Source of the DNA: Candidatus Moraniibacteriota bacterium | GTDB lineage: Bacteria > Patescibacteriota > Minisyncoccia > Moranbacterales > GWC2-37-73 | NCBI GenBank assembly: GCA_036845785.1 | Contig: DAIUDF010000004.1 | Coordinates: 1-45,192 of the forward strand | DNA length: 45,192 nucleotides | Direction: 5' to 3' | Part shown: positions 1-35,591 of the stretch, piece by piece | Position numbering within the stretch: the first letter of the stretch is position 1 | Layout: each line of letters starts with the position of its first letter | Translations under genes and position numbers: made by a program | Notes under the pieces: model-generated | The model's input: the letters and a program-made list of their open reading frames with translations, nothing else | The model's database searches: none | What the model was told of the DNA's origin: nothing

Positions 1-373
1 CATTATTTTCTTGCTTGTTTGCTGTTTTGTATCTCTCCTCATATACTCTTGTTATATTTTTATAGAATTTGGAGAGAACTTTCCTGTCTACGGATATTTT
101 TATATTTTCCTTGTCATTGCAAAACTCATAAGCTGTGATTATATGGTTGTTTTGAAGATATTTTACAGCTTTTTGTCTTAATCTTCTTAATTCGGCAATT
201 ATATCATACGAATAATCGGGTAGGTGTTTTGCCAAGTTTGCTTCCACTTTCTCCTGTTCAGCTTTTATCAGTATTGTATTTTCAGTTTCTAATTCTAATT
301 CACTGGAAATTTCCCTAACGGTGTCAAAAAGAATTAGGAGATTTTTATTGTCCAAATTTTCTATTTTTTCCAT
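1..373 (-). CDS. Hypothetical protein, 5' part only (runs off the window edge)
   Basis: Open frame from ATG at 373 (in-frame ATGs also at 379 and 388): MEKIENLDNKNLLILFDTVREISSELELETENTILIKAEQEKVEANLAKHLPDYSYDIIAELRRLRQKAVKYLQNNHII..., with no stop before base 1. Not in the ORF track. Confidence 0.7.
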   Translation of the reverse strand, partial: MEKIENLDNKNLLILFDTVREISSELELETENTILIKAEQEKVEANLAKHLPDYSYDIIAELRRLRQKAVKYLQNNHIITAYEFCNDKENIKISVDRKVLSKFYKNITRVYEERYKTANKQENN

Positions 374-435
374 ATTCATTATAATCATAATTTACCTCAT
401 TTTACTCTTTAAAAGGCAAAAATCAAGCGGAATAG

Positions 436-464
436 TTGCTATTTGGCTATTTTGATTGTAGTAT
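436..464 (+). promoter_or_regulatory. Sigma70-type promoter for the structured RNA at 471
   Basis: TTGCTA(436-441)-N17-TAGTAT(459-464). Predicted +1 is about 471, the first base of the long stem. Confidence 0.55.
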
Positions 465-470
465 TTACTT

Positions 471-650
471 GAACCCACATTTACATAAACACCGAGGTTA
501 AGCTCGCTTTTAAGTCCAATTGTGATTTGAAGCGGGCGACCTTGATGCACACAATCGGACACCTCGGTGATCTTGTGAGTGTGGGTTCCGTCGGGTCGTC
601 CACTTGAAGGAACTTCTCGGCGACTTATTAAATTAAGTCGTTTTTAATTT
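471..650 (+). ncRNA. Candidate structured ncRNA or 5' leader: long rod enclosing an H-type pseudoknot, then a terminator
   Basis: 471-498 pairs with 561-588 (28 positions, 3 mismatches, G-U pairs favour + strand). 502-510 pairs with 529-537. Loop 514-524 pairs with 550-560 (10/11). Hairpin 589-595/616-622. Terminator-like hairpin at 619-645. Confidence 0.65.
619..650 (+). terminator. Intrinsic terminator-like hairpin immediately before the ATG at 652
   Basis: CGACTTA-ttaaat-TAAGTCG followed by TTTTTAATTTT. Confidence 0.6.
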
Positions 651-651
651 T

Positions 652-1068
652 ATGGGTATGTATGTATTTAGAAGGTGCCCAAAATGCGGGGCTCTTCTTG
701 AAAACTCAGGTTATCTATATGTTTCGTTAGGCAATCCAGTTGTTAATTGCCCTAAATGTAAAGCACCAATTAAAGCAGGAAACATCAATGAATGGGAATT
801 GATGTCTTCAGGAAGCAAAATTTATCATATAATAGCGGCTATAAAAACAGCCCTTGTTCTTTCTGTTTTTATTGGATTTTTGATATCGCTATGCTTTAAA
901 TTAATTAGCAAAGAGATAGAACTTACAACGCTTTTTGTGATTTCTCCGATGATTGGATTTTCCATTGAGATACTGCTCACGATTAGAAGTGTATATAATT
1001 CTAAAAAGAGAATGGGGGATGCTAAATATAGACGCTTTCTCGCGGGAGTAGGTATTGCTAAAGAGTAA
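652..1068 (+). CDS. Zinc-ribbon membrane protein (hypothetical)
   Basis: CPKC...CPKC pair followed by two hydrophobic helices. Confidence 0.75.
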   Translation: MGMYVFRRCPKCGALLENSGYLYVSLGNPVVNCPKCKAPIKAGNINEWELMSSGSKIYHIIAAIKTALVLSVFIGFLISLCFKLISKEIELTTLFVISPMIGFSIEILLTIRSVYNSKKRMGDAKYRRFLAGVGIAKE

Positions 1069-1212
1069 TAACAAAAGTTGATTTTAAGCATAGATATGTT
1101 AATCTTAAAATAAATTAACATTGATATGAGCATAGAAAATACAAGAAGAACATCGCCCATTTTGTCAGCCGTTTTTTCGGCTGCTTTTTAATTTATATTA
1201 ACGCTATGTTTT

Positions 1213-1530
1213 ATGGATAAATCTTTGAGAAATACACTAATAGTTGGAATAATTTTAATAGGATTAAGTATCGTGTATTATTTTGTAGTTAGACCAATAG
1301 TGAATGAAAAAAAGCTGACGAATTGTTTGCAAGAAGCAAATAAATATCTAAATAAAGCAAGAGAAAATAAAAAACAAGATAATGGAGAACTTCTTAAAAA
1401 AGTTGGCAACATTTACGAGGGAAGCACAGAGAAAGAACGGGTATATTTGAAAGAGTTGGCAGCATTCAATGAAATACAAAAAAGAGCTGAGGAAGCAGAA
1501 AAAGAGTGCTTTATGAAATATCCGCAATAA
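1213..1530 (+). CDS. Hypothetical protein with N-terminal membrane anchor
   Basis: N-terminal TM helix, then a helical charged domain with two Cys. Co-oriented with neighbours. Confidence 0.75.
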   Translation: MDKSLRNTLIVGIILIGLSIVYYFVVRPIVNEKKLTNCLQEANKYLNKARENKKQDNGELLKKVGNIYEGSTEKERVYLKELAAFNEIQKRAEEAEKECFMKYPQ

Positions 1531-1551
1531 CTTTCTTATTTTAGTAGAACT

Positions 1552-3906
1552 ATGAAAAATCAATCAATAAAAGATAAATTAAAGAAGCTTTTCATTTCTT
1601 TTTTTAAGGCATTATTTGTTTCTATGATATTTCTTAATATCTGCGGACTTTTTTTGTTAAGTGCAGATGGGTTTACTTCTGCTGAAAAAGCATTGATTGG
1701 CAATGTAAATTTGTGGAGAATTGTATTCGTCTTTGGCTTCTTGTTTGTTTCAACAGCAGCCTATTTCTTCATTAGAAAAAAAGAGGAATTATCAATCCCC
1801 ATTTTTCTGTTTATATTTTGGATTTTGGGTGGATCATTTGTGTATTTTGTTTCCAAAGGCAATATACAGCTAAACACTAACATTACAAGTATTAACATAC
1901 TCGGTTTTGTGAATACTTTTATAACTCTTTCTATATCATCACTATTTCTTATTTGGATATTCGGTATATATTTTTGCAGAAAGATAGCTGCAAAATTTAA
2001 TATGAAGAAAAGCATTGCTGTTTTTGCGGGCATAATTCTGCCTGTGCTATCAATGATGATTTATTCTATAATTTATTATCAAAAAGTTCCCAAAGAAAAC
2101 AAGATAAAATTAACAAAAGTGGTCGCAGGCATTTTAGCAGCCATTCTGATTATTATTTTTGGAATGACTTTCTACACTTTAAGATCGCCAGAGTATTCTT
2201 TGTATCAATTAAAAAAAGCAATTAAGAGCAATGATAAGGATAGTTTCAATAAATACTTCAATTCCAAAGAAGTCTCTGAAAAAATGGGCGAAACAGAGTC
2301 GGGAATCCAAGAAACTATGATGGGTATGGATGTTTCAATTTTGGAAATCAAAGAAGAAAACCCTGATCAAGGAAAAAATGCGATTAAATACATACCTACA
2401 AAACTAAACGGAAAGAGCTTAAAAATGGCATCACTAACTTATTTCAATGGCGAAAATGGAATAGAGCCAGAGATTTCCTTAAAATTTAATGACGAGGGGA
2501 TAAAATTGCTTTCTGAATTGACTCAAAAAAATGTAGGTAAAACGATAGCTATTTTTCTAAATGGGCAGATGGCGAGTGCACCAAAAGTTGAAACAGAGAT
2601 AACTAATGGAGAGGCGGTAATTACGGGAAGTTTTACATATGAACAGGCAAAAGAAATGGTAGAAAAAATTAACACAAGCAAAGATAGTATGCTTGATAGT
2701 TTAAAAATAATAAAAACAGAAAGAAGCGGAAATTCTGCCAAAATTGCTCTACAAAACATAAATGGAGAAAACTTTTGGATAGATATGAACCAAATGCAGG
2801 GAGGATATTGGCAGATAACGGATACACGCCTATCAGAATTTGAAGAGAACTATATAAAAGAAAAATTACCAGTTCCAGATGAATCAAAGACAATTACATA
2901 CGACTGGAAGTATAAGGGCAAGAGCTATTCTCTAAATGAAGAATTGTATGGTTCATTTTATAAGTTTTATAATTCGCTTCCTGCTACTAATGTATTTAAC
3001 GGGGAGTCTCAAATAGGTTGGTTAGAAAAAGAAAACCAATTGTTCATCAATGGAGTTGAGGAAGATGACACTATAAGCAAATTGGCGAAATCTATAAAAT
3101 CTCTTGGGGAAGAAAAAAAACTTAATGAAGATCAAATAGTTGAGTTGATAGCAACATTTGTTCAGACAATTCCTTATGACTATGAAGAACTTGCAAATAT
3201 AGACTCTGGCAATCATAAGATTGATTATCCATATGAGGTTTTGTATAAAAATAAAGGAATTTGTTCGGATAAAAGCTACTTGGCTTATTCGTTATTGAAG
3301 GATTTGGAATATGGTGTTTCATTTTTTCTTTTCCCAGAGGATAGGCATATAGCAATAGGCGTAAAATGTCCTGTGGAGTATTCAAACTATGACTCTGGCT
3401 ATTGCTTTATTGAAACAACAAGTCTTGGAAATAAAATCGGATCAACCCCAAGCATTATGAAAGATACCCGCATTGCTTCTTCAAAAATAGAACTCGGAGA
3501 TTTTGGAGTTGATGCATCGGAAAATCAATCCCAACCGCTTGGAAAAATAGAAATTTTAAATAAAATTGACGGAAAAGAATATGCTGGAATTATTGAAACA
3601 GTTAAAACCCAAAGGGAGATTGACGGCTTGGCTGCATCTCTGAATAAAATGGATAGCGAATTAAAGGTTTCAAGAGTAGAACTTGATCTTAAAAATGGTG
3701 AGGTTGGTAAATTAGTAGATAAGCTCAATAAATTGGCAAAAAGTGATGACATTAGTTCAATTGGCAAATATGATGATATCTATTCTGAATATAAAGATGA
3801 ATACTCTAAATTTGAAAAAGACAGGAAAGCTTTCAATGCAAAAGTTGCGACATTCAATCAGTTAAAAGATAGATATAATAGTCTTATAAAAACTTTTTAT
3901 CAGTAA
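1552..3906 (+). CDS. Multidomain membrane protein: TM region + DUF2939-like + SecD P1-head-like insert + transglutaminase-like domain + coiled coil
   Basis: SPEYSLYQLKKAIKSNDKDSFNKY (DUF2939-like). LNGKSLK...PEISLKFNDEG...NVGKTIAIFLNG...SAPKV...GEAVITGSFTYEQAKEM (SecD-head-like). FVQTIPYD...YPYEVLYKNKGICSDKS...HIAIG...FIETT (Cys-His-Glu transglutaminase-like). Confidence 0.8.
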   Translation: MKNQSIKDKLKKLFISFFKALFVSMIFLNICGLFLLSADGFTSAEKALIGNVNLWRIVFVFGFLFVSTAAYFFIRKKEELSIPIFLFIFWILGGSFVYFVSKGNIQLNTNITSINILGFVNTFITLSISSLFLIWIFGIYFCRKIAAKFNMKKSIAVFAGIILPVLSMMIYSIIYYQKVPKENKIKLTKVVAGILAAILIIIFGMTFYTLRSPEYSLYQLKKAIKSNDKDSFNKYFNSKEVSEKMGETESGIQETMMGMDVSILEIKEENPDQGKNAIKYIPTKLNGKSLKMASLTYFNGENGIEPEISLKFNDEGIKLLSELTQKNVGKTIAIFLNGQMASAPKVETEITNGEAVITGSFTYEQAKEMVEKINTSKDSMLDSLKIIKTERSGNSAKIALQNINGENFWIDMNQMQGGYWQITDTRLSEFEENYIKEKLPVPDESKTITYDWKYKGKSYSLNEELYGSFYKFYNSLPATNVFNGESQIGWLEKENQLFINGVEEDDTISKLAKSIKSLGEEKKLNEDQIVELIATFVQTIPYDYEELANIDSGNHKIDYPYEVLYKNKGICSDKSYLAYSLLKDLEYGVSFFLFPEDRHIAIGVKCPVEYSNYDSGYCFIETTSLGNKIGSTPSIMKDTRIASSKIELGDFGVDASENQSQPLGKIEILNKIDGKEYAGIIETVKTQREIDGLAASLNKMDSELKVSRVELDLKNGEVGKLVDKLNKLAKSDDISSIGKYDDIYSEYKDEYSKFEKDRKAFNAKVATFNQLKDRYNSLIKTFYQ

Positions 3907-3910
3907 AAAT

Positions 3911-4123
3911 ATGGAAACAACCGAAACAGGAGCAGTGGGCTATCTTTTCTGGATTATATACATTGCTCTAACCATTTATGCAATCTATTATTCAAAGAGA
4001 GAAGCAAAAGAGTTAAAAATGAGCGAGACAATAGCTGTTGTAGCAGGCTTACTATTCCCAATTTTGGCGTTATTAATCTACGCACATTTGAATTACAGGG
4101 CAAAGCGAAAAGAAAGTATATAA
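3911..4123 (+). CDS. Small two-helix membrane protein
   Basis: 70 aa, two hydrophobic segments, starts 4 nt after the upstream stop. Confidence 0.7.
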   Translation: METTETGAVGYLFWIIYIALTIYAIYYSKREAKELKMSETIAVVAGLLFPILALLIYAHLNYRAKRKESI

Positions 4124-4176
4124 ACTAAATCTGACGCTATGGCAAAGCTTCAAATTTGTACTATAATGAGACTATT

Positions 4177-4332
4177 ATGGAGAAAAAAACTATTAAATTT
4201 ACTGCCACAAAAACTGTTCAAAAACCAACCACAGTTAAATTCCACACGAAAGATGGGAAGGCTGTGTCATTTAAAGCTATTGAAACAGTAAAAGTGAAAG
4301 AGCGAGTTAAATTTCAAGCGAAGAAAAAATGA
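4177..4332 (+). CDS. 51-aa basic protein, putative antitoxin of the downstream PIN protein
   Basis: MEKKTIKFTATKTVQKPTTVKFHTKDGKAVSFKAIETVKVKERVKFQAKKK*. Its TGA overlaps the PIN ATG (ATGA at 4329-4332). TATAAT at 4162-4167. Below the ORF-track size cutoff. Confidence 0.7.
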   Translation: MEKKTIKFTATKTVQKPTTVKFHTKDGKAVSFKAIETVKVKERVKFQAKKK

Positions 4333-4814
4333 ATAAGATATATCTTGATACAAACATTTTCGTCTCCTATTATAGTGATGAAGATTCCAATAGGAAACAA
4401 AAAGAAGCCGTAATAGCGGCTTTCAAAGTATTTGAACAATTAGGTGATGTGGAATTATGGACTTCAATGTGGACAATTACAGAAATGGTAAAAGTGTTAA
4501 TTCGTAATATAAAAATGGATCCAGAAATTGTTTCAGAAATTGAAAAGGAGCTTCTCAATGAATCCAGACTTTTAAATTTAAAGATACGCTTTGCAGATGT
4601 AAGTCCAATAAAAGACTATGATTTCAAAGAATTTTTCTATCATATTAGAAATGGAATACTAAACTATAATTCAGGAGTGGGAGATGTTATGCATAGCATT
4701 ATTATGAAGAATAACGATATAAAGCACATACTTACATTTGATGGTAAAGATGATTTTAAAAAGATCCCCGAATTGACTGTTATAAATCCCAAAGATGTTA
4801 AATTAGACAAGTGA
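4329..4814 (+). CDS. PIN-domain (VapC-like) ribonuclease
   Basis: IYLDTNIF...TITEM...GDVMH...ILTFD acidic-residue pattern typical of PIN domains. Confidence 0.9.
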   Translation: MNKIYLDTNIFVSYYSDEDSNRKQKEAVIAAFKVFEQLGDVELWTSMWTITEMVKVLIRNIKMDPEIVSEIEKELLNESRLLNLKIRFADVSPIKDYDFKEFFYHIRNGILNYNSGVGDVMHSIIMKNNDIKHILTFDGKDDFKKIPELTVINPKDVKLDK

Positions 4815-4907
4815 TAGGAGTTGTCCTATTTGATTTAAAATAATTGCTGGATCAGGCAAATCTTTAAGCCAGTCAAAGGTTCTAAACCTGTCCTGCCAAG
4901 CGAGCCA
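4803..4907 (-). pseudogene. Orphan C-terminal tail, possibly of a tRNA-targeting recombinase, ending at an attR-like degenerate tRNA 3' end
   Basis: Reads WLAWQDRFRTFDWLKDLPDPAIILNQIGQLLSLV*. It begins at TCCTGCCAAGCGAGCCA (4891-4907), a degenerate version of the tRNA end TCCTACCGCCGGAGC(CA) repeated downstream. Confidence 0.4.
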
Positions 4908-4945
4908 AATTAAAAAAGCATCCTTTTTGGGTGCTTTTTTAATTT
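4908..4945. terminator. Bidirectional terminator-like hairpin following the att-like tRNA end
   Basis: AATTAAAAAAGCATCC-ttttt-GGGTGCTTTTTTAATT. Confidence 0.7.
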
Positions 4946-4957
4946 TGTTTTGAGTTG

Positions 4958-5070
4958 GGTAGGATTCGAACAGGAAAGGGGTCGGGAAAACGTGAGTTTT
5001 CCTGGGGTGGATGTATTGAAACCGCAAGGTTTCAAGGAGCAAAGCGACGTGAGATTCCTACCGCCGGAGC
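4958..5070 (+). repeat. tRNA-tail element, copy 1 (tRNA-Asn-type flanks)
   Basis: GGTAGGATTCGAAC (inverted T-loop/T-stem) + core GAAAGGGGTCGGGAAAAC..GTTTTCC..TTGAAACCGCAAGGTTTCAA + TCCTACCGCCGGAGC (T-stem, acceptor CGCCGGA, discriminator G). Core shared with 35341-35462. Confidence 0.8.
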
Positions 5071-6074
5071 GGTGGAGTTTACTTCAAAAATTGGTGCGGG
5101 GTGAAAATCCTACCGCCGGAGCAAAGAAAATAAGGCTTAAAATCGCCTTGTTTTTTGTTTATATTTTATGATATAATTAACATCTAAAAATAATTTTGCA
5201 TGAAATATGAAAATAACTTTATTTAAAAAATGGAATCTGGCAATAAAAATAGTTCCCATTCTAATTGGGATATTTATTTTAAAATTGATATTTCATAAAT
5301 TTGGCTTTGAATACATTTCTCTCAATGCTTTGTTTACCAGTCTAATCGCGGCAACAACTTTTTTGATCGGGTTTCTTATAACCGGCGTTATTTCTGATTA
5401 TAAGGAAAGTGAAAAAATTCCCGGCGATATGGCAGCCGGACTGGAATCTATTCATGATGAAATTTATATATTAGATAAAAACAAAGGTAACGAATCTACG
5501 AAAAAATATTTGAATTTCTACAAAGCTTTTTTAAATTCAATAATTGATTGGTTTTACCGAAAAGAAAAAACTAAAAACATCCTGGTGAAACTTCATCAAA
5601 TGGATGATTATTTTTCCGAATTGGAAAGCATAATTCAGCCGAATTTTCTAGCTAGAATGAAAAATGAGCAGGGAAATATAAGAAAAATGATTATTAGGGT
5701 AGATAATATTAGGGATTTGTCTTTTATACAATCAGCTTATGCTATTGTTGAATCACTGGCCTTTTTCGTAATAACCGGGCTTCTGATTTTAAAAGTCGAA
5801 CCTTTTTATGAGGCTCTTTTCTTTACGATGTTGGTTTCTTTTCTTATGGTTTATATGATTTTTTTAATTAAGGATTTGGATAATCCTTTTGATTATTCAA
5901 AAAATGGCGAGAACGGAACAGAGGTTTCCATAAAGCCCATTTATGATTTAATTGAAAGAGTGAAAGACAATAAATGATGCGCCTTGCATTATAATGGCTC
6001 TAACATTATCTATTGAGCGGAGCATCAAAGTTTACTTCAAAAAATAGTGTTGGGTGATATCCTACCGCTGGAGC
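5065..6074 (+). repeat. Imperfect ~58 bp direct repeats (5065-5122 and 6017-6074), each ending in the tRNA 3'-end copy and bracketing one gene
   Basis: CGGAGC..AGTTTACTTCAAAAA..GGGTGA..ATCCTACCGC(C/T)GGAGC in both copies. Confidence 0.75.
5207..5977 (+). CDS. Bestrophin-like (DUF4239-type) membrane protein
   Basis: Two N-terminal TMs, a soluble helical region, two C-terminal TMs ending IKDLDNPF. Confidence 0.7.
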   Translation: MKITLFKKWNLAIKIVPILIGIFILKLIFHKFGFEYISLNALFTSLIAATTFLIGFLITGVISDYKESEKIPGDMAAGLESIHDEIYILDKNKGNESTKKYLNFYKAFLNSIIDWFYRKEKTKNILVKLHQMDDYFSELESIIQPNFLARMKNEQGNIRKMIIRVDNIRDLSFIQSAYAIVESLAFFVITGLLILKVEPFYEALFFTMLVSFLMVYMIFLIKDLDNPFDYSKNGENGTEVSIKPIYDLIERVKDNK

Positions 6075-35302: not shown

Positions 35303-35340
35303 AAATAAACAAATCCCGCTAGAAATAGCGGGATTTTTTT

Positions 35341-35462
35341 GTGCCCGAAGAGAGACATCTCACTCGTTCCGACAAGTCGGAACTCTTTGAAACCTTGCGG
35401 TTTCAATGCTTCCACCGCGGGAAAACTCTTGTTTTCCCGACCCCTTTCTTTGTTCGAGTCTC
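35341..35462 (-). repeat. tRNA-tail element, copy 2 (tRNA-Leu flanks)
   Basis: Minus strand GAGACTCGAAC (inverted T-loop of the adjacent tRNA-Leu) + shared core + GTCTCTCTTCGGGCAC (direct copy of the tRNA 3' end). Confidence 0.85.
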
Positions 35463-35509
35463 AATCAACAAAAAACAAAAAACTTCCCAAAGGAAGTTTC
35501 TTGTTTTTG

Positions 35510-35591
35510 TGCCCGAAGAGAGACTCGAACTCTCATGGCTTGCGCCACACGATTTTGAGTCGTGCGTGTATACCAATTTCACCACTCGGGC
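35510..35591 (-). tRNA. tRNA-Leu(CAA)
   Basis: Acceptor GCCCGAG/TTCGGGC, anticodon arm CACGA-CTCAAAA-TCGTG, long variable arm, GAGAG-TTCGAGT-CTCTC T-arm. CCA not encoded. Confidence 0.96.

Follow-up and report, generated by a model that had tools for sequence, protein, structure and literature searches.

A small element with a structured RNA core and target-matched flanks beside tRNA genes of Patescibacteria, and a possible reverse-transcription route for its spread

Small structured RNAs that multiply in genomes without a linked enzyme gene are best known from SINEs and from L1 chimeric retrocopies such as U6-L1. These copies are non-autonomous, are flanked by target duplications of variable length, include truncated forms, have their junctions at RNA termini and, in the chimeras, join two cellular RNAs through template switching by a reverse transcriptase (RT). 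To our knowledge, no such retroposon class has been described in bacteria. A second point of reference is the primer-binding-site logic of retroviruses and LTR elements, in which the 3'-terminal 18 nt of a tRNA (positions 59-76) are used and plus-strand synthesis copies the stretch that begins just past A58 and finishes with the CCA. Bacterial group II intron and G2L4 RTs carry out snap-back synthesis from microhomologies of 1-4 nt, non-templated addition, end-to-end template switching and MMEJ (bioRxiv 10.1101/2022.03.14.484287). They have been described in break repair and not in the spreading of a dedicated RNA.

In the IS110 and IS1111 families, a structured bridge (seek) RNA provides one segment complementary to each target strand, with a central overlap, and works with a DEDD (RuvC-like plus Tnp) recombinase. 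The attachment sites CTX-phi attP(+) and attC fold to mimic their target; the inverted target-like arms of CTX-phi, attP1 and attP2, reportedly lie at a spacing of some 90 nt. MITEs and REPINs are short, non-coding, intergenic and multi-copy, and have foldable terminal inverted repeats. Finally, tRNA genes are entered by islands that encode an integrase.

Here we compare these systems with an element found twice in a 45,192-nt stretch of a Candidatus Moraniibacteriota contig (DAIUDF010000004.1), hereafter the window. We propose that both sites are a small non-autonomous mobile element with a structured RNA payload that spreads by copy-and-paste through an RT route, and we assign to this statement as a whole a probability of about 0.5. 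That the element is mobile and non-autonomous, with flanks templated at insertion, is highly probable; that an RT is the agent is a tentative proposal, a little short of even odds.

Since the target gene of site 1, tRNA-Leu(CAA), lies on the minus strand, the element has to be read on that strand, where it runs 5' to 3' as tRNA, filler, inverted copy (A'), core and direct copy (X) (Table 1). A preliminary description of this DNA had reported this order and these sequences at both sites, and they are present. In the tRNA numbering, G53 is position 35530, A58 is 35525 and G59 is 35524; the promoter-like site of the gene, TTGACA-17-TATTAT, is at 35660-35632 (promoter scan 11/12). The 5' part of the core consists of AAAGAAAGGGGUC, hairpin P2 (GGGAAAAC-AAGA-GUUUUCCC) and the junction GCGGUGGAAGCA; the 3' part consists of P3 (UUGAAACC-GCAA-GGUUUCAA), AGAG, P4 (UUCCGAC-UUG-UCGGAA) and CGA-GUGAGAU. 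GAGAC of A' pairs with GTCTC of the right-hand X, a further pairing of TCGAAC with GTGAGA is possible via tandem G.A, and the fold of this core copy has a z-score of -2.9. No promoter of the element's own was found at site 1 by the promoter scan, and the element is located behind a terminator-like hairpin. A native bidirectional terminator follows at 35311-35336 (terminator scan).

Table 1. Coordinates of the element features and of the associated tRNA gene in the window.
Feature	Position	Strand	Evidence or remark
Site 2, terminator-like hairpin of 17 pairs, 5' of the element	4907..4945	+	
Site 2, A', GGTAGGATTCGAAC, reverse complement of tRNA-Asn 53-66	4958..4971	+	
Site 2, core copy 2, 84 nt, 3' end GCGAC-GUGAGAU	4972..5055	+	CM R1 match 4972-5038, 83.3 bits, E 8e-22; alignment with copy 1
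Site 2, X, TCCTACCGCCGGAGC, tRNA-Asn(GUU) 60-73 plus C	5056..5070	+	
Putative 5'-truncated derivative unit: GGTGGA junction motif, then GTTTACTTC...GGGGTGAAAA, then second X at 5108-5122	5071..5122	+	repeat families D1-D3, pattern matches
Putative second truncated derivative unit, then X with one mismatch (6060-6074)	6018..6074	+	78% identical to 5065-5104
Site 1, right copy of X, GTCTCTCTTCGGGCACAAAAA (tRNA 59 to +5)	35336..35356	-	runs straight into native terminator
Site 1, core copy 1, 95 nt	35357..35451	-	CM R1 match 35384-35450, 84.1 bits, E 5e-22
Site 1, A', inverted copy GAGACTCGAAC, reverse complement of tRNA-Leu 53-63	35452..35462	-	
Site 1, filler: terminator-like hairpin AAAAACAAGAAACTTCC-TTTG-GGAAGTTTTTTGTTTTT plus T-rich spacer	35463..35503	-	terminator scan
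Site 1, left copy of X, GTCTCTCTTCGGGCACAAAAA, tRNA 59-73 plus 6 nt of trailer	35504..35524	-	21-nt exact direct repeat of 35336-35356
Site 1, target gene tRNA-Leu(CAA)	35509..35591	-	ARAGORN; Rfam tRNA 54.6 bits

At two syntenic loci, L155 and L157, an identical tRNA-Leu(CAA) is followed directly by the native terminator. Relative to them the window has one additional block of about 170 nt without an ORF, ending in a 21-nt duplicate of tRNA position 59 to +5, and the sequence downstream of the right-hand X matches these empty alleles. CM R1, the covariance model of the core built in this analysis, detected no core in the L155 and L157 relatives. The empty alleles that relatives have at the tRNA-Leu site show the element to be an insertion, which bears out the mobility suspected in the preliminary description. 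The alignment also places the filler within the inserted block, as it is missing from both empty alleles; its hairpin, foreign to the empty allele, may come from the 3' end of another transcript or from a donor locus. The tRNA-Leu(CAA) of relatives bears other inserts as well, for example a GIY-YIG ORF with a replacement tRNA.

Site 2 has the hairpin, A', core and X in the order of site 1, as had been claimed, but the adjoining tRNA is lacking in the window: ARAGORN and Rfam found no tRNA at the site, and the 5' half of a tRNA-Asn was not found in the window either. The tRNA-Asn that had been predicted from the flanks does exist. A tRNA-Asn(GUU) on the source contig, 11.3 kb upstream of site 2 and outside the window, has a T-arm reading GTAGGTTCGAATCCTACCGCCGGAGC and a 3' end that is exactly TCCTACCGCCGGAGC; ARAGORN misses the gene because a group I intron interrupts it. 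A tmRNA, a permuted tRNA and a split tRNA were considered and rejected, none being detected by ARAGORN or Rfam. The hairpin before site 2 has a counterpart at an orphan copy, L025, which is also preceded by a similar hairpin.

A block of 11.2 kb separates the tRNA-Asn, with its own X, from the hairpin, A', core and second X of site 2, and its genes encode a large serine recombinase, a DnaG-type zinc-ribbon protein and a DUF5659 protein. Such a block would be expected if the elements were remnant attR ends of conventional tRNA-integrating islands, with the direct copy as att repeat, the core as a conserved arm, and an island body that site 1 would have lost and site 2 retained; the other inserts at the relatives' tRNA-Leu(CAA) fit this picture too. 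We nevertheless regard it as very improbable. The filler between left X and A' has a median of only 31 nt (43 copies), and most copies have neither an island nor an integrase; the site-1 insert, for its part, contains no integrase gene. Large serine recombinases exchange strands at a 2-bp crossover and are not known to create repeats of 15-60 nt. The junctions point either way: the 3' end of the tRNA recurs as a direct repeat, whereas the core-side junction varies in its start (59-61) and contains 0-2 extra nucleotides. The covariation of the core is of the RNA type and not the conservation of a protein site, and identical cores occur at different tRNAs of one genome. The serine-recombinase island is separable from the element, and the simplest reading of site 2 is that it entered later, between tRNA-Asn and an older element copy.

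Besides sites 1 and 2, which score 84.1 and 83.3 bits with CM R1 (E about 1e-22), the window has no full copy. Their cores, counted earlier by eye as 59/66 nt identical, share 87% identity over the alignable 69 nt, and core motifs occur two to three times in the window against 0.03-0.2 expected. Scans of public contigs gave 144 copies in Patescibacteria; 18 true copies are in GTDB species genomes and more than 120 are metagenome loci, all of Patescibacteria type. The initial search pattern, which demanded GTGAGAT, covered the window's subfamily only, and about half of its 34 genome matches were chance matches in coding DNA. More than half of the copies (88 of 144) lie less than 150 nt downstream of a tRNA on the same strand, and the tRNAs represent 19 amino-acid specificities. 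Viral contigs scanned with the core patterns contained no matches, and BLAST against phages and plasmids was likewise empty. In Rfam 15, the whole window at the gathering threshold matched tRNA only, site 1 at E<=10 matched just terminator look-alikes and tRNA, and the divergent copies L092, L075, L061 and L105 at E<=0.05 matched only tRNAs. No earlier description of the element was found in the literature searched. The element is an uncatalogued structured RNA of about 80-95 nt, present in many Patescibacteria.

The core is a sense-strand RNA fold, in agreement with its earlier description as RNA-like. In the core alignment 92.3% of the cells are paired, and the covariation score of 0.204 compares with 0.086 in shuffled alignments, none of 500 reaching 0.204, and with at most 0.104 in slid controls. 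Hairpins P2, P3 and P4, with GNRA loops and compensatory stems, are closed by the A':X helix. P3 is retained across at least 8 different stem sequences, P2 includes 10 G.U pairs that form on the tRNA-sense strand only, and a tertiary pair between junction and loop is Watson-Crick in 54 of 61 copies (C.G in 31, U.A in 23). An alternative pairing from RNAalifold (GGGGUC with GAU plus 3 nt) was set aside because it would exclude the A':X helix and involves columns that hardly vary.

The fold and its tertiary contact are under strong purifying selection, which could also mark a host small RNA, or a cis module of tRNA operons that is matured together with the tRNAs and scattered by ordinary duplication and recombination. 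RNase P would free the 3' end of this RNA where a tRNA follows, and A':X would be a processing or regulatory stem in competition with the 3' half of the tRNA. The element is always in the tRNA sense, in the same orientation as the upstream tRNA; in six copies the core adjoins +1 of a complete tRNA, and in one of these a promoter-like site stops 4 nt short of the core; and A' could alternatively pair with positions 53-66 of the tRNA itself (53-73 in L003). We consider this account unlikely all the same, given the presence/absence polymorphism at an otherwise identical locus and the sporadic distribution: one of eight tRNAs is occupied in L009, the tRNA differs in every genome, and non-tRNA sites are used as well. 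Moreover, a terminator lies between tRNA and element in most cases, copies truncated at the 5' or the 3' end are present, and local duplication explains neither the anchored inverted copy nor the CCA ends described below. A function of the RNA in the host is, on the other hand, compatible with a mobile element.

The relation of both flanks to the target was tested in 80 copies downstream of a tRNA, by comparing cognate with non-cognate tRNAs. The direct copy matched the cognate tRNA over a median of 15 nt and non-cognate tRNAs over 6 nt (p = 4e-40), and the inverted copy over 9 nt versus 6 nt (p = 8e-26); both flanks follow the neighbouring tRNA, as the preliminary description had claimed from two sites. 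On the tRNA the direct copy starts at 57-61 and the inverted copy at 53, the latter beginning at G53 in 38 of 52 copies. At the junction GTGAGA/X there are 0-2 extra nucleotides (T, TC, TT, CC), and X starts at 59, 60 or 61; together with the truncated copies, this gives the junctions a polymerase-like character. In a sister subfamily X begins at G53, not 59. Copies of the window's subfamily end in a fixed GTGARAT, which at position 57 covaries with the T-loop of the target.

At tRNA and non-tRNA sites alike the footprint is X, filler, inverted start of X, core, X. The direct repeat is at least 12 nt long in 69 of 113 copies (chance median 8), with a mode of 15-21 nt and a range of 12 to 61 nt or more, and the right-hand copy carries on for 9-90 nt into the native sequence that follows. 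At non-tRNA sites the right repeat begins exactly at the partner of A', with repeat lengths of 61 nt in L061, 53 in L077, 20 in L105, 15 in L102 and 24-26 in L082; the 53-61-nt repeats of L059 and L061 have the same exact start. A simple fold-back at the end of X was rejected as the source of A', which is always anchored at the core-adjacent first nucleotide of X, whatever the length of X (L082, L105). Variable-length target duplications together with truncated copies are as in SINEs. Unlike the terminal repeats of MITEs and REPINs, the inverted repeats here are reverse complementary to whichever target a copy has and so vary between copies, the duplication is long and of variable length, the interior is conserved rather than the ends, and no parent IS or RAYT was found.

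Retargeting is visible within single genomes. The cores of L010 and L020, at tRNA-Tyr and tRNA-Glu of one MAG, are 100% identical, and two cores of L039, at a Met and an Asp tRNA, are 90% identical, to be compared with 87% for the window pair. Core likeness is 0.636 in same-isoacceptor pairs and 0.637 in pairs at different tRNAs, and core lineage tracks the genome and not the identity of the tRNA. Since copies within a genome have cores in common although their tRNAs differ, the flanks must be made afresh whenever the element inserts. The preliminary description was right that the element is retargetable and that its flanks pair and close the core, and the core did not turn out to be a catalogued Rfam family; its likening of the flanks to bridge-RNA-type programmable guides is not supported. 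Since the flanks pair with each other, the right copy runs on into native DNA, the junction is imprecise, non-tRNA targets show the same footprint and core lineage follows the genome, the flanks look like insertion products templated on the target or its transcript, not like inherited specificity determinants.

A more general form of the guide proposal would make the core a scaffold for a recombinase or nuclease encoded in trans, of the IS110 bridge/seek RNA or TnpB/IscB omega-RNA kind, with A' and X reading opposite DNA strands of the T-arm. Formally, A' complements the sense strand at 53-66 and X the antisense strand at 59-73+, overlapping as left and right guides of a bridge RNA do; a scaffold whose 3' tail matches the target over 15-21 nt recalls an omega-RNA guide; and the universal T-loop GTTCGA might act as a TAM-like motif. 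We regard the proposal as very improbable, because no gene for a DEDD recombinase, TnpB or IscB is present in or near any copy, the two window copies included, and because the supposed guides form a helix with one another that closes the core, and are not placed in internal loops. A donor-binding loop is lacking, as is a second loop that matches the element ends. Repeats of 12-61 nt and longer (21 nt at site 1) are unlike the 2-nt core duplication of IS110 and the lack of any in IS200/605. X is contiguous with native downstream DNA, the intact targetable tRNA gene beside every copy would amount to self-targeting, and the known omega and HEARO families of Rfam gave no match to the element. A role of A' as a group I-like internal guide (P1/P10) was rejected too: the core is too small, there is no Intron_gpI match, and copies at non-tRNA sites have the same footprint.

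The footprint could also be produced by a folded single-strand attachment site of the CTX-phi or integron attC type. The element would then be a single-stranded DNA circle whose A'+X stem mimics the duplex target, a host Xer-like or integron-like tyrosine recombinase would exchange one strand pair with chromosomal X, and replication would fix the product. A circle X-filler-A'-core recombining within X yields exactly X-filler-A'-core-X, the order observed; the two inverted target-like arms are about 90 nt apart, as in CTX-phi attP1/attP2; the termini ...GAAC / GTTC... of subfamily b recall the attC triplets AAC/GTT; and tandem arrays occur whose units have the length of such a circle. This explanation seems unlikely to us, for the junctions are imprecise in both extra nucleotides and start of X, and targets of unrelated sequence, tRNA and non-tRNA, do not provide a common site for a sequence-specific recombinase. 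Both arms would have to be replaced jointly for 19 tRNA specificities, yet identical cores are found at different tRNAs in one genome. Covariation of the RNA type with sense-strand G.U pairs is foreign to attP(+) and attC, no recombinase or integrase is associated with the copies, and CCA that the tRNA gene does not encode would be unexpected from DNA recombination.

It is such CCA that argues for an RNA intermediate. Of 11 copies whose sequence departs from the gene immediately after C74, six read a CCA that is not gene-encoded (p = 2e-6 relative to background, and p = 0.0025 relative to the 15% of genes with an encoded CCA), and in 4 further copies identity ends exactly at an encoded CCA. 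The long repeats of L008 and L031 end where the terminator T-tract ends, and the six cores that adjoin tRNA +1 likewise meet an RNA end. The CCA signature is seen in only about 20% of the tRNA-linked copies, and many right-hand copies run on into the gene's own trailer (CA...), so that part of X is derived from DNA or from a precursor. Flank boundaries at RNA ends, which are statistical support and not direct proof, are those of a non-LTR retroposon or SINE-like element, and they point to reverse transcription with template switching and snap-back.

As in retroviruses, the element carries a tRNA segment that begins directly behind A58 and reaches the CCA end, with CCA not gene-encoded in some copies; unlike the retroviral segment, it is in the tRNA sense and 3' of the core, and LTRs and gag/pol are lacking. 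Since A' covers tRNA positions 53-66 and not the 3' end, the tRNA is unlikely to be a primer. The scars of the element (anchored inverted copy, 0-2 extra nucleotides, a T-loop-like end with microhomology, and the joining of filler) match the activities of the G2L4 and group II intron RTs, although no such RT is linked to the element here.

No enzyme was found in the window or in 20 kb of additional flank, and none recurred as a candidate among 1539 ORFs near the 144 copies, which supports the earlier view of the element as non-autonomous; the co-occurring recombinase, transposase or RT gene that might have accompanied it did not appear. The ORF clusters near the copies were housekeeping families and an HTH/LAGLIDADG-like ORF in six loci, not adjoining the copies. 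No RT was seen in the sampled DNA, stretches of 8-22 kb amounting to about 0.8 Mb around copies, which is weak evidence because one RT gene per genome of about 1 Mb would rarely fall into such a sample. The closing helix recalls a retron, but no RT gene follows any copy examined.

We infer the participation of an RT, the order of its steps and the manner of joining as follows. The payload would be the structured non-coding RNA of 80-95 nt, in the sense of the neighbouring tRNA, landing mostly just 3' of tRNA genes and spreading within Patescibacteria genomes. An RT encoded in trans, of the group II-intron-like or non-LTR type, would begin a cDNA where the tRNA transcript ends, be it at the mature CCA or at the terminator end of a precursor. 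It would stall in the T-loop, perhaps at an RT-blocking modification such as m1A58, and take up the core RNA as its new template from that RNA's 3' end, in some cases after an addition of 1-2 non-templated nucleotides, so that X would be a copy of the tRNA from the T-loop (59-61, or 53 in the sister subfamily) to the end of the transcript. After copying the core through to its 5' end, the cDNA 3' end would snap back on its own 5' part and copy the first 5-21 nt of X, giving A'; paired with X, A' would turn the core into a closed multi-helix junction. The product might then be joined at the cognate tRNA locus by its tRNA-homologous end, and at its other end by microhomology or filler. Several findings are awkward for this RT model. 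In the sister subfamily X starts at G53 rather than at 59. The covariation of the GTGARAT end at position 57 is explained only via a preference for microhomology, and the second copies of L005 and L015 are 3'-truncated, which is not as simple target-primed reverse transcription predicts.

The element would differ from SINEs and L1 chimeras in its bacterial host, in having no A-tail and no partner LINE or RT that was found, in the tie of its insertion to the gene of the chimera-forming RNA, the tRNA, and in its regular snap-back inverted copy of the target. It may, though we would sooner doubt than assert it, be the first bacterial SINE-like retroposon family, a structured RNA reverse-transcribed in trans, fused to the 3' end of a tRNA transcript and integrated via the acquired homology. 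As the homology would come from the RNA captured in each cycle, the target would be 'programmed' by a cellular RNA and not by a protein or an inherited guide. If the retro-type reading is true, CPR bacteria host non-autonomous small-RNA retroposons, a class thought to be eukaryotic, and these elements choose targets in a new way, by capturing tRNA 3' ends through template switching. Free-standing or intron-type bacterial RTs would then reshape genomes in vivo, part of the tRNA-fragment clutter around Patescibacteria tRNA genes would be explained, and there would be a natural system in which one RNA is written into DNA and another RNA determines where. Whatever the mechanism, a widespread and strongly conserved RNA fold with a tertiary contact has been in no catalogue, and the element can be annotated by the rule X - filler - inverted start of X - core - X.

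The 15-mer TCCTACCGCCGGAGC occurs three times in the window, at 5056, 5108 and 6060, the last with 1 mismatch. The copies at 5108 and 6060 each come after what seems to be a 5'-truncated element derivative, the first of which, compared by eye, probably derives from the 3' part of the core. The two truncated units bracket an ORF at 5207-5977.

Within the window, ARAGORN and Rfam call a single tRNA, a minus-strand tRNA-Leu(CAA) at 35509-35591. Along that strand it is followed by filler DNA, an inverted copy of part of the tRNA (A'), the core, a 21-nt duplicate of the tRNA end (X, the direct copy of the target) and a terminator. Site 2 has the same order of hairpin, A', core and X. The preliminary description gave the order and sequences of both sites correctly, but not the strand of site 1, and the tRNA of site 2 lies outside the window. 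Through homologues of a neighbouring lineage-specific gene we reached syntenic loci for site 1, with ATP synthase epsilon, a carbonic-anhydrase-like gene, a 167-aa gene, tRNA-Leu, ParA, ParB and RelA. In two relatives (L155 and L157) an identical tRNA-Leu is followed directly by the native terminator, and the window differs from them by a single additional block comprising filler, A', core and 21-nt duplicate. A covariance model search detected no core in any of the syntenic site 1 relatives. The element at site 1 is an insertion, and the comparison of empty with filled alleles suggested earlier has thus yielded both states.

Features of the element and its surroundings (numbers without a prefix are window positions; L-numbers denote loci from public contigs, L163 being the source contig)
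Feature	Position or locus	Strand	Description
Filler, site 1	35463-35503	minus	41 nt, carries terminator-like hairpin
A', site 1	35452-35462	minus	GAGACTCGAAC, reverse complement of tRNA-Leu positions 53-63
Core, site 1	35357-35451	minus	95 nt
Right X, site 1	35336-35356	minus	GTCTCTCTTCGGGCACAAAAA, 21-nt duplicate of tRNA 59 to +5
Bidirectional terminator	35311-35336	both (one hairpin)	3' of right X at site 1; common to convergent gene
Hairpin, site 2	4907-4945	plus	
A', site 2	4958-4971	plus	GGTAGGATTCGAAC
Core, site 2	4972-5055	plus	
X, site 2	5056-5070	plus	TCCTACCGCCGGAGC
Truncated unit	5071-5122	plus	~52 nt, AGTTTACTTCAAAAA..GTG..GGGTGA.A + X
Truncated unit	6018-6074	plus	~52 nt, AGTTTACTTCAAAAA..GTG..GGGTGA.A + X
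Intron-split tRNA-Asn(GUU)	L163 1766-2192		6.3 kb before window position 1; intron ~340 nt, in anticodon loop
Island after tRNA-Asn	L163 2180-13400		11.2 kb, including window 1-4950
Copy without tRNA	L082		X 24-26 nt; left X directly abutted by A'
Copy without tRNA	L105		X 20 nt; spacer 9 nt
Copy without tRNA	L081		X 11 nt; perfect hairpin X-GTAA-A'
Copy without tRNA	L061		X 61 nt
Copy without tRNA	L077		X 53 nt
Copy without tRNA	L102		X 15 nt
Core joined to tRNA +1	L053, L080, L092, L097, L101, L151		

The terminator hairpin serves the 167-aa gene on the plus strand and the tRNA/element unit on the minus strand, and is kept in the empty alleles. The end of tRNA-Leu is an insertion hotspot, since more distant relatives have other inserts at the same tRNA. 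In the relative L156 (2031-2868) the anticodon loop of tRNA-Leu(CAA) is broken by an ~80-nt hairpin-rich insert, present twice; behind it come an ORF of GIY-YIG-like type, a tRNA-Leu(CAA) that replaces the broken one, and more tRNA fragments. A 38-nt hairpin insert lies within the old tRNA-Leu T-loop. A different ~190-nt insert behind tRNA-Leu(CAA) in L158 (3498-3900), L159, L161 and L162 comprises a partial tRNA-Leu, from the anticodon loop on, and a second, diverged tRNA-like 3' end, and was not matched by the core model.

The preliminary description would have been refuted by flanks that do not covary with the adjacent tRNA. For 80 copies behind a tRNA, we determined the longest exact match between the last 26 nt of the tRNA and the region after the core. 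The direct flank matched the cognate tRNA over a median of 15 nt and other tRNAs over 6 nt (p = 4e-40), and for the reverse complement in the 5' flank the medians were 9 and 6 nt (p = 8e-26), so that the flanks do follow their tRNA and the refutation does not apply. Direct copies begin at tRNA positions 57-61, mostly 59 or 60; of 52 inverted copies, 38 have their start at G53. Both flanks reflect the variable T-loop bases 59-60, and also the aberrant T-loop GTGCAAA of L047.

The same core is found with different targets within single genomes, as the preliminary description had noted for the window, where the cores at Asn and Leu are 87% identical across the alignable 69 nt. In one other genome two cores (L010 and L020) are 100% identical at tRNA-Tyr and tRNA-Glu, and in another (L039) they are 90% identical at Met and Asp. 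Across loci, core similarity is 0.636 for the same isoacceptor and 0.637 for different ones. The flanks are remade at each insertion. Between GTGAGA and X there are 0-2 added bases (T, TC, TT, CC), the start of X varies among copies (59, 60 or 61), and truncations occur at the 3' end (second copies in L005 and L015) and at the 5' end (the two truncated units in the window). Retargeting within genomes, variable junctions and truncations are marks of a polymerase-driven, imprecise process and not of a site-specific recombinase or inherited guides. The tandem arrangements in L005 (2359-2427) and L015 (~1305-1394) consist of a complete element, X and terminator, and then a second copy with only A' and the first 25-40 nt of the core before unrelated DNA.

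The core folds like an RNA, in the tRNA sense. In an alignment of 79 distinct copies, 92.3% of cells in the P2 and P3 hairpins are paired, and the covariation score of 0.204 was reached by none of 500 shuffles, which score 0.086, and lies above the maximum of 0.104 obtained with slid partners. P3 has at least 8 different stem sequences with pairing kept; P2 is near-invariant, and its ten exceptions are G.U pairs, possible on the sense strand only. Read in the tRNA sense, the core loops are mostly GNRA. The consensus is GGG-AAAGGGGUC-[P2]-G-NRGGAAR-NA-[P3]-RGAG-[P4, variable]-GAC, and a tertiary contact is indicated by covariation between the central base of the junction motif GG[U/C]GG and the final base of the P3 loop (C.G 31, U.A 23, other 7).

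The covariance model finds exactly two full copies in the window, at 84.1 (site 1) and 83.3 bits (site 2). A three-motif pattern identified 18 true copies among GTDB species genomes, every one in Patescibacteria (Moranbacteria, Saccharibacteria, Nomurabacteria, Colwellbacteria, Harrisonbacteria and unclassified), and a 19-nt core pattern occurs in more than 120 metagenome contigs among the matches listed, for a total of at least 144 copies in GTDB genomes and metagenome contigs. A tRNA ends less than 150 nt upstream on the same strand in 88 of the 144 among the matches listed, with at least 19 amino-acid specificities. Rfam 15 gave no match, even at permissive thresholds and with divergent members; viral contigs, phage genomes and plasmids contained no copies, and a literature search found no description of the element. 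This is a large family that is in no catalogue.

For site 2, we read the source contig JAKQKH010000078.1 (136 kb) past the window start. A tRNA-Asn(GUU) with a group I intron, 11.3 kb upstream of site 2, ends in TCCTACCGCCGGAGC. The intron scores 44.7 bits against Intron_gpI (E = 6e-10), just below the gathering score of 50. An intron-bearing tRNA-Asn(GUU) likewise lies directly upstream of the copies in L052 and L102; ARAGORN does not call these intron-split genes. The island between tRNA-Asn and site 2 has genes for a large serine recombinase (518 aa; the end of this ORF overlaps the 3' end of tRNA-Asn), for a DnaG-type zinc-ribbon protein and DUF5659, and for several unknown proteins. It reaches the first genes of the window, those of a SecDF-head/transglutaminase-like protein of 784 aa and of a PIN toxin, and is probably a phage-like element that has integrated. 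On the right-hand side of site 2, the two units share 78% identity, are each followed by X, and look like 5'-truncated core derivatives; they bracket ORF 5207-5977, the gene of a 256-aa bestrophin-like membrane protein, in a cassette-like layout. Because island, element copy and truncated units all gather there, the tRNA-Asn end is a serial insertion site, and on the simplest reading the island inserted between tRNA-Asn and an element copy that is older.

Copies without a tRNA have the same layout: X, a short filler or loop, A', core, X again and native DNA. Here A' is complementary, in reverse, to the initial 5-21 nt of X, and the right-hand repeat and the partner of A' have exactly the same start. 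Of 113 copies with sufficient flank, 69 show a direct repeat of 12 nt or more (chance median 8, 95th percentile 10), with a mode of 15-21 nt and a tail beyond 60 nt; the median filler is 31 nt. In a further class the core end ...GAC is joined directly to +1 of a complete tRNA, without A' or repeat. In a sister subfamily GAC is followed by a true T-loop (GTTCGA...), in the place of the fixed GTGARAT of the window's subfamily. In L151 (~3290-3415), the stretch from tRNA-Tyr to the core contains a shorter, unrelated 'core' (GGGTGCGCCCGGGAAAAGCGAACAGCTTTACTTTTTCAGCACCC...). On its two sides are AGGGATTCGAA and AATCCCTCACTACCCC, which copy the T-arm and 3' end of tRNA-Tyr in inverted and direct orientation; with such flanks, the same footprint may carry other payloads.

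Several boundaries coincide with RNA ends. Eleven copies part from the gene directly behind C74. Six of them have C-C-A at a place where the gene has CAA or CTT; set against the background frequency of the CA dinucleotide this gives p = 2e-6, and p = 0.0025 if the reference is the 15% of these genes with an encoded CCA. Identity stops exactly at an encoded CCA in four further copies, the opposite case occurring only once. In L008 and L031 long repeats stop at the last T of the terminator tract, hence at the 3' end of a primary transcript, and in the +1-joined class the core abuts the RNase P-generated 5' end. X starts just after A58, the boundary of retroviral copying of the tRNA primer. Combined, these boundaries point to tRNA transcripts as the template of the tRNA-derived parts.

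The element fails the defining tests for bridge RNAs, to which it had been loosely likened, for MITEs, retrons and attC/CTX-type sites and, as it carries no integrase gene, for integrase islands. Its closest counterparts in mode of operation are eukaryotic SINEs and the chimeric retrocopies made by L1; it shares the tRNA segment 59-76 with retroviruses, but belongs to none of these families. We therefore rate it a new kind of prokaryotic element, with a mechanism that is proposed only. That it is mobile and non-autonomous, with flanks templated at insertion, we consider likely (probability about 0.85).

A route based on reverse transcriptase (RT) is more tentative, at slightly under even odds. 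cDNA synthesis would begin at the 3' end of a tRNA transcript and stall in the T-loop; the RT would switch onto the 3' end of the core RNA and copy it; the cDNA 3' end would then snap back and copy the start of X to give A', eased by the proximity of the core ends in the fold; and the tRNA homology of the product would let it join the cognate tRNA locus, the other junction receiving filler. The activities needed are those of bacterial group II intron and G2L4 RTs, which prime by snap-back on microhomology of 1-4 nt, add non-templated nucleotides, switch templates end to end and perform MMEJ (10.1101/2022.03.14.484287). Such a route would explain anchored direct and inverted copies, variable lengths, extra junction bases, RNA-end boundaries, free retargeting and the absence of a linked enzyme; in the short stretches of DNA read around copies in each genome no RT was found. 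The route does not yet account for where the site 1 filler hairpin, a foreign sequence, comes from, for the fixed GTGARAT end and its covariation with T-loop position 57, or for the 3'-truncated tandem copies. Six loci, among them L042 (4854-5634), have an ORF of 259 aa a few kb from their element copies; it combines an HTH domain with a LAGLIDADG-like motif (LYLGEG) and may encode a homing endonuclease.
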